28,602 nucleotides of DNA from Candidatus Collierbacteria bacterium RIFOXYD1_FULL_40_9 (GCA_001776275.1 MFAQ01000041.1:54057-82658), one strand, 5' to 3'; numbered from the stretch's first letter, positions 1,374-19,395 are shown. Numbers and translations: made by a program. Notes: generated by a model not told the origin, from the sequence alone.

Positions 1374-1650
1374 ATTTTTGCGTTTTCTGTCGCTTTTTGA
1401 AAGATACAGATTTACTAAAGCCCTGAGCATCGCTCCGCGCGGTGCCGGGCGCGCGGGCGAGTGCCCGTACTCTGTACGGGAAATCCTTATCTGTTGACCG
1501 TTATAACGAAATTCGAACTTATTTCTGGGACCACAACTAATATCTGGCTCACCGCTCTACACTGTCGTGTCTCGCGGTTCGCCACCGCCTGCCGGTAACA
1601 TCGGATCGAACGATGGCTACCGCAGTAGCCATGACAGAAAACGCAAAAAT
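1374..1650 (-). ncRNA. Candidate structured RNA (or ssDNA) domain closed by a perfect 18-bp inverted repeat, immediately downstream of the RT
   Basis: ATTTTTGCGTTTTCTGTC (1374-1391) / GACAGAAAACGCAAAAAT (1633-1650). Internal hairpins: 1613-1632, 1545-1584, CCCGTAC-TCT-GTACGGG, CCGCGCG/CGCGCGG. Visibly more GC-rich than the flanks. Confidence 0.4.
1492..1595 (-). repeat. ~104-nt repeat, copy 1 (inverted relative to copy 2 at 19291-19395)
   Basis: Manual alignment gives about 11 differences over ~104 nt, with identical blocks CCGGCAGGCGGTGGCGAACCGCGAGACACGA (31 nt) and GAAATAAGTTCGAATTTCGTTATAAC (26 nt). Confidence 0.92.
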
Positions 1651-1686
1651 TAGAAACAATCCTATAACAAATACAGATTCCTAGTA

Positions 1687-2664
1687 TTATTTAGGTATAT
1701 TAACTGAACTTAATTGCCTCTTATATTGTCTATATGCTTGTTTCTTTATCATTAGCCTATCTCTTTCTTTCTTTGATTTCGCTTCACCCAGAAGAAGTGA
1801 GACGTTTTTCATCCTCAATTGTGTTTTTTTGCCGGGGGAAAGTTTATTTCTTCCTAGTTTAATTCCCAGATGTTCAGGAATTTTTTGAAACGGAATTACT
1901 TTGGTTTTGTCTTGGTTAACCGGTAAAGTCTGATTAGGATCGTAATTTTGTAGAATGTCTATTACTTTTTCTTTTACTTCCTGCATTTTTGACATTTCTA
2001 CTCGGCTGGCAGATATTCCAATATCGTCAACGAATACGACGAGCCTAGGGTCATGTCCCCTAAGCATTTTGTGCACTGTTAAATCAATTTTGAGAAAAAT
2101 ATCAAGATTTGCCCAAACTGCAAGCCTGGGCGAAGTTGCAAATCCTCTAGCCAATGTTTTTGATACCTCTCCAGATCCTTTGGGACCTTTAGGAACACAA
2201 CAGATTTTCGATAACAGCCTGGAAGCTCGGACACTACATCCGCACTTCTTATTAAAAAAATGAAAAATTCTCCCGTCTCCAATTCTTTCAAAAAAACGAG
2301 ATATATCTAATTTCAATAAAGTACGTTTTTTCTGGAAGCCTAACAAGTTTGCAGCTGCCTGCACATGATTCCGATATGACAGTCCTCCAAAAATAAAGTC
2401 CGGGACAAGCCTGTCATACGGAGCCAAAACAGCTAAGTTGATTCTTTTTAGTAGCTCTGCCAAGGGCTTTCCCCTTGCGCTACGAACAAACTTTTCTTTT
2501 TCCGGCTCTGAAGCCCTGCTGTCGTACCAATAGTGATCCAAATTTTCGAGACAATCATTAATAAGTTTCAATGATTCTGAATATGGTAAATATCTATCAC
2601 TGATTCTCTTGGCTAACTCATTTTTGCTCTCCAAATTTATTTGAGGATAACGCAGGTCAGACAT
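1687..2664 (-). CDS. Reverse transcriptase, retron-like/unclassified, 325 aa
   Basis: RT motifs in the expected order: LLKLDISRFFERI, LARGFATSPRLA (PQG-x-x-TSP equivalent), FVDDIGIS (YxDD equivalent), NQDKTKV, EHLGI. No maturase/X or endonuclease domain. Confidence 0.9.
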   Translation of the reverse strand: MSDLRYPQINLESKNELAKRISDRYLPYSESLKLINDCLENLDHYWYDSRASEPEKEKFVRSARGKPLAELLKRINLAVLAPYDRLVPDFIFGGLSYRNHVQAAANLLGFQKKRTLLKLDISRFFERIGDGRIFHFFNKKCGCSVRASRLLSKICCVPKGPKGSGEVSKTLARGFATSPRLAVWANLDIFLKIDLTVHKMLRGHDPRLVVFVDDIGISASRVEMSKMQEVKEKVIDILQNYDPNQTLPVNQDKTKVIPFQKIPEHLGIKLGRNKLSPGKKTQLRMKNVSLLLGEAKSKKERDRLMIKKQAYRQYKRQLSSVNIPK

Positions 2665-2980
2665 AATCGTTTAGTTTTTGGGACTTTACTTTAATTAGGT
2701 AGTTTTGAAATTTACTTCCCAAATTAATAAGTTCTTTTTCAATCAACGATAACTTTGGCGTTGAAGTGGCGGGGAGTGTAAAAGCAAAAGGCATTATGGA
2801 GCCAGGATGAACACCTAACTTTTCAGAAAGTTTTATAACAAAACCCTTTGAGGCTTCCTTCTGACCGGATTCAATCATAGAAACTAGAATTTTTGAAACC
2901 CCCAAAACACTAGCTAGCTGACCTTGGGTGAGGCCACTTTCTTTTCGAATATCTTTAATTAATTCTGGAAATGTTTTCAT
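2657..2980 (-). CDS. XRE-family HTH protein, overlapping the RT start by 8 nt
   Basis: IKDIRKESGLTQGQLASVLGVSKILVSMIESGQK is a classic HTH_3 pattern; about 40-aa C-terminal extension. Confidence 0.9.
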   Translation of the reverse strand: MKTFPELIKDIRKESGLTQGQLASVLGVSKILVSMIESGQKEASKGFVIKLSEKLGVHPGSIMPFAFTLPATSTPKLSLIEKELINLGSKFQNYLIKVKSQKLNDYV

Positions 2981-2991
2981 AAGTGTGTGAT

Positions 2992-3213
2992 TTAGGGGGC
3001 GACTACTTTTGGAATAAGTCCATCAAGATGCTTATTATCCAGAGAATTAGTCTGAATATCCGCAATATTCGGATTATCATATGTAGCCACCCCCATGAAC
3101 GGAGTGCTTAAGCTAACGGTATCGCAAACGATTCCTGCACCTAAACAATTTGTATTCATAGGGTATAAAGCTAAGAAGCATTTTAGTAATAAGTGATTAC
3201 TCTCGTTGGCCAC
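2992..3213 (-). CDS. Possible small ORF (73 aa, GTG start) inside the RT leader
   Basis: Track ORF ending 11 nt before the HTH start; its GTG lies inside the 3210-3221 helix. No homology recognised. Confidence 0.2.
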   Translation of the reverse strand: MANESNHLLLKCFLALYPMNTNCLGAGIVCDTVSLSTPFMGVATYDNPNIADIQTNSLDNKHLDGLIPKVVAP

Positions 3214-17720: not shown

Positions 17721-18614
17721 CTAATGTAGAACCTTGATCCTGCCTAAGTTGGCGATACATTCAGCTAAATGTGGGCAAGTGTATAACTCTGTTCTGGACG
17801 CAGCTAACACGAAAAAAACCAAGCTAGCAGCCACAACACCTAAGACTCCCAGTGTCAGCTTGTTACTTAATATCTTTTTACCTACCAGTACCGCTATTCT
17901 CTCACTTTGGCTATTAAAATAATTTATGCCCATCGAAATAAATCCTTTTTCCATCCCCATTCTTTTATACAGTGCTGTAATCACGGGAAGTTTGTCCTCA
18001 ATTTTCTCCTCAGCAGATTTGTCTGCACAAATCTCAACCAAGATGTAAAAATCACGTATTATCTTTTCCTTCAGTGGAAAATATGGAGTGGCTTTTCCTA
18101 ATAAGGAAACTACTGTTGTACGCAAAGGATCTCTCGATCTGACATGTCTTTCTTCGTGAGATATCATCGCTTCTATTTCTCTTGATGTATGCAATTTCGA
18201 TAAGCCACTCGCTACAAATATTTTCGGTTTTAATAATCCAGCAGTAAATATTTCCCCAAGTACAGAATTAAAAATTATTTTATTAGGTTCGATTCTCACA
18301 ATTTTCAAGCTCCCAATAAATTGCCTCGTTCTCACCACCAAGTTAAAAGTTGAAGCTATTGCTGCCACAAATCTCCAAATCAAAATGATGCTTAAAACCC
18401 AGAGCACTGAAGAAATCATTACTTGGTGAAGGTCCCCAACACTCCCCAAACTATATCCACTTTTTATCGAATCAAGTAAATATACCAAGTACATCACCAT
18501 TCCTGGAGTAGTGCTCATAAACAACCAGGATACCAAAAAGCCATAAAGCCCACCAACCGCTACAATAATTCCAAAAAATATACTCGATAACTTATGTAGT
18601 TTCCGGTAGTCCAT
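17721..18614 (-). CDS. M56 family metallopeptidase (BlaR1-like, no penicillin-binding domain)
   Basis: IFTAGLLKP, HEERH (HExxH), EICAD; located downstream of a BlaI gene. Confidence 0.85.
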   Translation of the reverse strand: MDYRKLHKLSSIFFGIIVAVGGLYGFLVSWLFMSTTPGMVMYLVYLLDSIKSGYSLGSVGDLHQVMISSVLWVLSIILIWRFVAAIASTFNLVVRTRQFIGSLKIVRIEPNKIIFNSVLGEIFTAGLLKPKIFVASGLSKLHTSREIEAMISHEERHVRSRDPLRTTVVSLLGKATPYFPLKEKIIRDFYILVEICADKSAEEKIEDKLPVITALYKRMGMEKGFISMGINYFNSQSERIAVLVGKKILSNKLTLGVLGVVAASLVFFVLAASRTELYTCPHLAECIANLGRIKVLH

Positions 18615-18986
18615 TTATGAGTTAGTGTTAGATTCTATATATTGTTTTAATAGTTCCAGATCTTCTTTGTTACTGCTCACTTCATCTACAAACTGAGCTA
18701 TAGCCAGTTCTCCGTAGCTACCAACAAGACCTCCGTAAATGCTGGATAAGTTCTTTTTTAAGAAAGACTCTTTGTTTGAACACGGACAATATTCAAAAGC
18801 TTTTCCATCCATTTTTCTGTCTAAGATCTTCTTATCCGCCATCCTCTTTAGGATAGTCATGATGGTTGTGTAGGCATATTTACCCTTCAGTTTTCCCAAT
18901 ACTTCCTGAGGTTTCAAGGGCTTCTCCGAAGCCCAGAGTACATCCATGACCTGCTGTTCCAATGGTCCTAATAGGCTGCTTTTCAT
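18615..18986 (-). CDS. BlaI/MecI/CopY family repressor
   Basis: LGPLEQQVMDVLW, YAYTTIMTILKRMADK. Confidence 0.92.
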   Translation of the reverse strand: MKSSLLGPLEQQVMDVLWASEKPLKPQEVLGKLKGKYAYTTIMTILKRMADKKILDRKMDGKAFEYCPCSNKESFLKKNLSSIYGGLVGSYGELAIAQFVDEVSSNKEDLELLKQYIESNTNS

Positions 18987-18987
18987 A

Positions 18988-19004
18988 TACTACACATTGT
19001 AGCA
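18988..19004 (-). promoter_or_regulatory. BlaI/CopY-type operator (7-3-7, one mismatch) upstream of repressor 2
   Basis: TACTACA-CAT-TGTAGCA; minus-strand -10 TACAAT lies inside it. Confidence 0.75.
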
Positions 19005-19290
19005 CATAACAACAAATGCATATAATACGTGCCTGCGAAGCAGGCACTTGGCTGATAGGCCAATGCTGTCTCAATTCTTAAATATCAGATAGTAAAATCT
19101 TCTCCTAACTAGCTGATATTTTATGGCGAAATTGAAATTTGAGCCAAATATTGAGATAGCTTCATCACCTACGCCGTGGGCGAGTGGTGATGAACATAAA
19201 GATGCGACAGCGAATGCTGGCGCTTGCTCGCAAGAGCAATCATCCCGACCGCAGTCGGGATACAATATTAATCGCGCGCAAGGTGTTCCG

Positions 19291-19395
19291 CCGGCAGGCG
19301 GTGGCGAACCGCGAGACACGAAAGTGTTGAGCGGTGAGCCAATAAGTTAGTAATGGTCCACGAAATAAGTTCGAATTTCGTTATAACAGACAACA
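19291..19395 (+). repeat. ~104-nt repeat, copy 2
   Basis: Reverse complement of 1492-1595 at about 89% identity by manual alignment. Confidence 0.92.

Follow-up and report, generated by a model that had tools for sequence, protein, structure and literature searches.

Inverted 100-nt arms bracket the cargo module of a probable tRNA-targeted serine recombinase island in a Collierbacteria genome

Two near-identical sequences of about 104 nt lie in inverted orientation within a 28,602-nt stretch of the genome of Candidatus Collierbacteria bacterium RIFOXYD1_FULL_40_9 (contig C41:54057-82658 of an 810 kb assembly in 46 scaffolds; this whole stretch is called the window below, and positions are counted from its first nucleotide). 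We interpret them as inverted end-arms ("A arms") that belong to the cargo half of a two-part integrative island moved by a large serine recombinase (LSR), and assign to this reading a probability of roughly 0.8. The island is situated directly 3′ of a tRNA-Gln(UUG) gene, which is found ~180 nt left of the window, and spans from the tRNA tail to window position 19394/19395. At attR, the arm on the element side is the right copy, and the left copy is the same A arm within an internal junction composed like an intact attP, its tip being the crossover point at which the recombinase and cargo modules meet. Hereafter, A designates the core of the two copies, B the segment adjoining the tRNA, and S1, S2 and S3 the three junctions of the island.

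By a repeat search of the window, two adjoining inverted pairs were obtained, 1545-1595/19291-19341 (51 nt, 96% identity) and 1488-1540/19347-19399 (53 nt, 87% identity), which were joined by BLAST against the whole 810-kb assembly into 110 aligned positions having 89.1% identity and one small indel (E 6e-34). The full copies extend over 1488-1595 on the minus strand and 19291-19399 on the plus strand, with the outer tips TGTTG at 1492-1496 and CAACA at 19391-19395; this confirmed a preliminary description of the window, which had reported inverted copies of about 89% identity with TGTTG...CAACA ends. Most substitutions between the two copies are an A in the right copy. The ~104-nt core is bounded at both ends and the flanks of the two copies are unrelated. 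In the assembly, the core was present in three copies, each linked to a recombinase: the one further copy is located on contig C12 before a second recombinase paralogue, where part of it is missing in a scaffold gap. Because the window has no N and the same arrangement was found in single-contig genomes, a misassembly, listed in the preliminary description as a refuting outcome, was dismissed.

In the reading direction of the tRNA, the parts follow one another as tRNA|B (S1), recombinase gene, inverted A|B (S2), 17.7-kb cargo, and a folded C domain followed by A|host (S3), so that inverted B copies bracket the recombinase gene and inverted A copies bracket the cargo (Table 1). The recombinase gene is convergent with tRNA-Gln and starts with an ATG at 1318-1320; the left copy ends 172 nt upstream of it, close to the ~170 bp given earlier. 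Its product begins with MTKYIMYCRKSTDE, which includes the catalytic-serine motif YCRKSTDE, and matches the Pfam domains Resolvase (PF00239, 1.9e-20), Recombinase (PF07508, 8.8e-15) and Zn_ribbon_recom (PF13408, 6.9e-9); its matches in the PDB were LSR N-terminal domains only (3G13, 1.5e-7). At the left edge of the window there is a scaffold gap, with tRNA-Gln(UUG) immediately left of it and a B segment directly after the tRNA. To the right of the island follow a 316-aa gene, the 148-aa gene, BipA and other housekeeping genes, which are syntenic with those of relatives, in line with the earlier observation that the right copy lies where host-like genes resume. Thus the suggestion that the copies are recombination sites or ends of a mobile unit stood as far as arms and module boundaries are concerned, but the bracketed 17.7 kb is not the whole unit, which starts at tRNA-Gln and includes the recombinase. 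A second island of the same family is found on contig C12 of this genome (L038, 7420-9290), at tRNA-Gln(CUG), with its own barcode (see below) and a recombinase 72% identical; there a scaffold gap falls inside the A core and the far end is off the contig.

Table 1. Coordinates of the island parts and neighbouring features in the window
Feature	Positions	Strand	Remarks
Large serine recombinase	1-1320	-	N-terminal 440 codons present; 3′ end lost in scaffold gap left of window
Leader hairpin, cUGCGg loop	1346-1365	-	between a2 and ATG; stretch 94-100% conserved between genomes
a2, 3′ strand of 18-bp closing stem	1374-1391	-	perfect inverted repeat with 1633-1650
B arm of S2	1394-1492	-	first 32 nt (1461-1492) are the island-specific barcode
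Crossover dinucleotide of S2, spare attP-like junction	1493-1494	- (AC)	putative; A-type/B-type meeting point in all islands
A arm of S2 (left copy)	1497-1595	-	GA-rich three-part hairpin with GNRA loop and 3′ hairpin containing GTTCGAAT
X motif	1598-1612	-	leader domain
cUGCGg hairpin	1613-1632	-	leader domain
a1	1633-1650	-	partner of a2, closes leader domain
Variable cargo	1687-18986	.	Pfam and PADLOC
Retron reverse transcriptase	1687-2664	-	PADLOC RT_VI, 6.9e-27
Retron helix-turn-helix protein	2657-2980	-	PADLOC HTH_VI, 3.4e-13
C domain	19123-19290	+	~170 nt of helices before right A arm; several GNRA loops; variable-length insertions in hairpin tips
A arm of attR (S3), right copy	19291-19395	+	putative crossover AC at 19393-19394; island end
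Host flank	19396-20853	+	148-aa gene at 20407-20853, 94% identical to a relative's gene behind an empty tRNA-Gln

The same order of parts was found in relatives at tRNA-Gln (genomes G072, G061, G067 and G071) and at tRNA-Glu (G075, G078 with two islands, G057 and G054), and the same build was also observed in three islands of distant families, two at tRNA-Arg and one at tRNA-Tyr, with recombinases 53-56% identical. The architecture is thereby represented by at least 13 loci at five tRNA species, with cargo ranging from 1.4 to 17.7 kb. A 296-nt query from the leader region matched 25 of the 43 genomes of the family, and with a covariance model of the A core, 10 of the 151 genomes sampled from the class gave matches, frequently in inverted pairs. 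Comparison with relatives lacking the island uncovered unoccupied tRNA-Gln sites with conserved flank genes, at which the tRNA, ending in GGCAAC, is followed by a terminator. In G054, a genome of the same genus, the left-flank gene, tRNA-Gln and the 148-aa gene (94% identical), 1.1 kb behind, follow one another without an island; in G059, the flank after the empty tRNA-Gln site is the terminator sequence that stands after the outer A arm in G067.

Tandem accretion was observed in four genomes (G061, G057, G059 and G072), where a leftover piece of an older B arm stands behind the outer A arm. Apparent products of reciprocal inversion in G072 and G075 were examined and set aside, as they fit tandem accretion with deletion of the older recombinase module. 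Several incomplete or different elements were also encountered at these tRNA genes. Beside its intact tRNA-Glu island, G075 carries a second cargo module without a recombinase (L070 2194-3200; L077 6489-9378); the two A arms face each other over 580 nt holding a 139-aa open reading frame (ORF). A remnant without a recombinase gene in G060:C5 (L062/L011) consists of tRNA-Gln, 52 nt of B, ~1 kb that includes a decayed recombinase fragment (38% over 167 aa), and then a C-A arm in direct orientation. At four otherwise empty tRNA-Gln loci (L057, L059, L065 and L066, in G064, G065, G069 and G058), an insert of 110-130 nt behind the tRNA ends in a direct 20-nt copy of the tRNA tail, a different small element at the same tRNA.

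The B copy abutting tRNA-Gln (C41:53880-53985) is inverted relative to the B of the leader, and the two are 97.5% identical over 80 nt (window 1417-1496 versus C41:53876-53955). The first 32 nt right of the crossover behave as a barcode of the island: they are the same at S1 and S2 in eight of nine islands, with a mean between-island identity of 0.60, and two islands of one genome carry different barcodes. The three distant islands at tRNA-Arg and tRNA-Tyr display the same pattern. In addition, in 11 of 12 islands the B segment of the leader is exactly reverse-complementary to the 3′ coding end of the recombinase gene. The simplest cause of the B identity is gene conversion between inverted repeats 1.6 kb apart, and the alternative is selection for pairing or matching. 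The 15-nt X motif, which occurs in the leader and at the recombinase 3′ end, was tried as an RNA pairing partner, but pairing was not supported, the motif being mismatched in three of the eight islands with at least one readable copy (the 3′ copy of the present island, G000_C41, included).

The sequence common to the three junction types (T|B, A|B and A|H) is only a core of 4-5 nt. At the arm tip the Gln clade has CAAC(A), the Glu clade TCAC and the Arg/Tyr islands GCAC, and each of these cores equals the final bases of the respective tRNA beyond its acceptor stem. So short a core is consistent with a crossover of 2 nt, and AC is common to the cores of all clades. In both clades, the GTTCGAAT motif is separated from the core by 10 nt in the tRNA and by 14 nt in the A arm. 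In the LI integrase model, the motif for the zinc-ribbon domain is reportedly shifted outward by ~5 bp in attP versus attB, to which the 4-nt offset of the left arm can be compared. The LSR would cut at the AC dinucleotide within the core, with S1 as the putative attL, S2 as a spare attP inside the recombinase leader and S3 as attR, and recombination of S1 with S3 would excise a circle carrying two inverted A|B sites.

The recombinase shares 72-75% identity with those of the sister islands, in which its ORF continues without a stop across antisense B and enters the antisense tRNA (Gln or Glu; L034, L035, L036, L038 and L070-L072). Therefore, integration alters the C-terminal tail of the enzyme. 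The GC-rich conserved B hairpin encodes PFASLRAWAGARA in the recombinase frame, and its compensatory substitutions are also synonymous.

Both arms sit in folded domains of 270-300 nt. On the left, the leader domain (1374-1650, minus strand) holds the cUGCGg hairpin, the A core and B hairpins and is closed by the a1/a2 duplex, which is 16-23 bp long and kept by compensatory changes in nine of nine islands, with two G-U wobbles on the recombinase-sense strand. The interval 1366-1665 is non-coding and folds more stably than its shuffles (z -6.0), as does the non-coding stretch holding the right copy (z -6.3). In its consensus fold, the inner (leader) domain was 98% paired, with seven covarying pairs, a result equalled by 4 of 500 shuffles; for the outer domain, based on 11 aligned outer copies, 95% were paired and 14 of 52 pairs had double compensatory changes, equalled by none of 500 shuffles. 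In slid controls, pairing fell to 22-39%. A strand preference was also found: the consensus fold energy of the A core is -26.5 on the strand reading towards the crossover versus -18.7 on the antisense strand, and its pairs include 16 G-U versus 5 A-C. No frame is open across the outer domain in relatives, and no conserved small ORF was found there. In a scan of the whole window with Rfam 15 at gathering thresholds, only two tRNAs passed, and permissive scans of both arm regions returned nothing better than E 0.9. Given the compensatory changes and the strand-biased G-U pairs, the arm domains are probably RNA, namely a recombinase leader and a terminal non-coding RNA that would end at the old terminator of the tRNA. 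Both the leader domain and the terminal C-A domain would be transcribed on the A-sense strand, and these RNAs would probably control the expression or the directionality of the recombinase.

A number of observations weigh against the island reading as a whole. In the present island, the scaffold gap breaks the recombinase gene at its 3′ end and where it meets S1. Joints indicative of excision, a circle or inversion (a check in reads for inverted or excised junctions had been proposed in the preliminary description) were not found in four runs of Logan contigs from the source groundwater samples, although at a depth of ~6 and with contigs breaking at repeats their absence is no evidence against mobility. 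The cargo comparison revealed no accessory or directionality-factor gene common to the islands. Promoter and terminator scans gave no informative site; a TATA(A/G)G-like box ~10 nt ahead of a1, conserved across the aligned sequences, is a hint only. The sequences showing covariation fall largely in two clades, so that the shuffle counts overstate their independence. Metatranscriptomes of three studies (sediment and wastewater) contain only 2-3 of 34 sampled words (0.06-0.09) of 19100-19420, which probably stem from the conserved core of relatives and are a weak hint of expression. Finally, canonical attP and attB sites of LSRs are quasi-palindromic, with two related half-sites around a central dinucleotide in 40-50 bp, whereas dyad symmetry is absent at A|B (A arm versus reverse-complemented B arm 0.07-0.39 in five registers, shuffles ~0.25) and the right arms, that is, the host flank and the B barcode, are not conserved.

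Since the right arms are free to vary and dyad symmetry is lacking, recognition seems to rest on the left arm only. The LSR would mainly recognize the left arm of each site, which is the T-arm/acceptor DNA of the tRNA in attB and the A arm in attP. Recognition of this kind would explain the tandem accretion, as the tRNA arm stays a usable target after the first insertion.

Among the other explanations, the one deserving the most serious, if tentative, consideration overlaps in part with the island reading: the conserved 100 nt might be primarily an RNA module, of which only the last 25-30 nt form a DNA site, with one copy in the mRNA leader of the recombinase and the other in a separate terminal non-coding RNA, and its RNAs would act on the recombinase as a sensor of the integrated or excised state or as a substitute for a directionality factor. 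This is favoured by compensatory helices that reach well beyond the needs of a 50-bp LSR site, by GNRA and cUGCGg loops and G-U wobbles that all prefer one strand, by a stretch from a2 to the ATG that is much better conserved than the protein (94-100% versus only 72-75%), by the exact reverse complementarity of the leader B to the recombinase 3′ coding end, and by the lack of an accessory protein conserved among the islands. It has no transcript support from contigs or metatranscriptome words, gene conversion over 1.6 kb would likewise keep the B copies identical, the X motif is mismatched as described above, and to our knowledge no RNA-dependent LSR has been reported. A more specific proposal, which we regard as unlikely, is that the arm-domain RNAs take part in the control of LSR recombination. 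The leader RNA, containing the element's own attP (A|B) and an island-specific barcode of 32-75 nt that exactly complements the 3′ end of the recombinase mRNA and equals the DNA beside the tRNA, would then report whether the recombinase 3′ end is joined to the tRNA (integrated) or to an A arm (excised), or would aid the choice of the element's own ends; if so, it would stand in for a directionality factor of protein nature and make up for the lack of a second half-site.

The inverted geometry also permits a programmed inversion switch, in which the A arms flip the 17.7-kb cargo or the B arms flip the recombinase module: S2 and S3 share arm and core in inverted orientation, so that recombining the two would turn the cargo around and restore either site, and inverted B copies bracket the recombinase gene. 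Cargo inversion, already raised in the preliminary description, is thus geometrically possible, but we consider it improbable. Recombinase and arms have an identical orientation in all 13 loci, the recombinase running towards the tRNA and having the a1-hairpin side of the cargo beside it in 13 of 13 intact loci; the shared SNase gene keeps the same orientation relative to the recombinase in the three islands carrying it; and no alternative joints appear in the available contigs. Tandem accretion and decay account for the odd or extra copies in G072, G075, G061, G057 and G059, and LSRs do not normally recombine attP with attR. The element also differs from Hin/Gin-type serine invertases, both in the single orientation of these loci and in its enzyme, an LSR and not a small recombinase with a C-terminal helix-turn-helix (HTH).

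Very little weight is left for terminal inverted repeats of a DDE-type transposon or of a miniature inverted-repeat transposable element, or for an assembly artefact. Inverted 100-nt ends do bracket the cargo and scaffold gaps occur at the other copies, but the island has neither a transposase (Pfam) nor a target duplication, its ends coincide with the tRNA-tail crossovers, and the layout recurs in closed single-contig genomes. Least credible of all, and refuted by the comparison of islands, is a dispersed retro-element or RNA family that owes its spread to the adjacent reverse transcriptase (RT), or a template/variable repeat pair of a diversity-generating retroelement (DGR). The end of the RT gene is 92 nt away from the left copy, and the mismatches are mostly A in the right copy. 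However, the RT is of the type VI retron kind with its own HTH partner gene upstream and, among the islands compared, is confined to this one, the others bearing the same arms without it; in addition, neither copy lies in an ORF and the genome holds only three copies, so the DGR reading was rejected. Of the dispersed structured RNA family proposed earlier, the structure with compensatory changes is retained and the spread by the RT is not. A retron msr/msd reading of the domain closed by a1/a2 was likewise rejected, because this domain travels with the recombinase and not with the RT.

The RT and HTH genes together correspond to a type VI retron, which is island cargo and apparently a defence system. 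Further cargo genes encode an SNase-like nuclease and a metal/thiol set spanning 4265-18986, with two heavy-metal P-type ATPases (748 and 1141 aa), ArsR, two BlaI/BlaR1-like repressor-protease pairs, DsbA, DUF305, YtkA and a DsbD-HMA-cupredoxin fusion. Apart from the SNase gene found in three islands, the cargo is wholly different between islands. Within the cargo of the present island, we also observed a 42-nt inverted repeat (8310-8351/17676-17717) and, as part of the interval 1687-3500 (minus strand) that includes the retron, a long structured region upstream of its HTH gene.

With known LSR elements (phiC31, Bxb1, A118/LI, SPbeta SprA, Tn4451 TnpX and SCCmec Ccr), the island shares a three-domain recombinase, site-specific insertion and a very short shared core. 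It differs from them in its tRNA 3′-end target, in 100-nt arms embedded in folded domains of 270-300 nt compared with sites of 40-50 bp, in the complete spare inverted A|B kept inside the element, in an A|B without dyad symmetry and hypervariable right arms, in a recombinase ORF crossing its own site into the antisense tRNA, and in having no conserved directionality factor. Islands inserted at tRNA or tmRNA genes by tyrosine integrases resemble it in targeting the tRNA 3′ end, leaving the tRNA intact and stacking newer islands against the tRNA while decayed older ones come to lie further out; here, by comparison, the enzyme is a serine recombinase, 4-5 nt are shared instead of a direct tRNA-fragment repeat, and the repeats are inverted. 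The excised circle would carry two inverted sites splitting a recombinase arc from a cargo arc, as in the yeast 2-micron FLP/FRT system and Hin/Gin segments, but no sign of flipping was found, the enzyme differs from both the small invertases and FLP, and no replication function is conserved. A conserved fold directly 5′ of the recombinase gene that partly repeats the element ends recalls the bridge or seek RNAs of IS110/IS1111 and the IS200 tnpA leader; here the enzyme is an LSR and not a DEDD or Tnp enzyme, neither a target-complementary loop nor an Rfam match was found, and RNA guidance is conjectural. In SSV1-type integrases, whose gene spans attP, integration likewise alters the 3′ reading frame of the recombinase, as predicted from the sister islands; here, only the C-terminal tail would be swapped, with the gene not split in halves, and in the present island the scaffold gap conceals this feature.

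No description of this layout was found in the literature searched. Six features set it apart from the closest known systems, namely a tRNA-tail target, 100-nt arms in folded domains, a non-palindromic junction, a spare inverted attP, the inverted B copies around the recombinase gene and the lack of an accessory gene conserved among the islands. The layout shows an exchange route for defence (retron) and metal-resistance genes in tiny genomes with few classical mobile elements, by means of a compact modular island that always stands behind a tRNA gene and leaves the tRNA undamaged. Apparently one-armed recognition, long folded arms, a spare attP and a reading frame that changes on integration together raise the question of how directionality and site choice are achieved without an accessory protein. 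As LSRs are tools of genome engineering, a family whose tRNA-tail target (Gln, Glu, Arg or Tyr) can be changed through a few arm-tip bases, and that is possibly controlled by RNA, would be useful to characterize.

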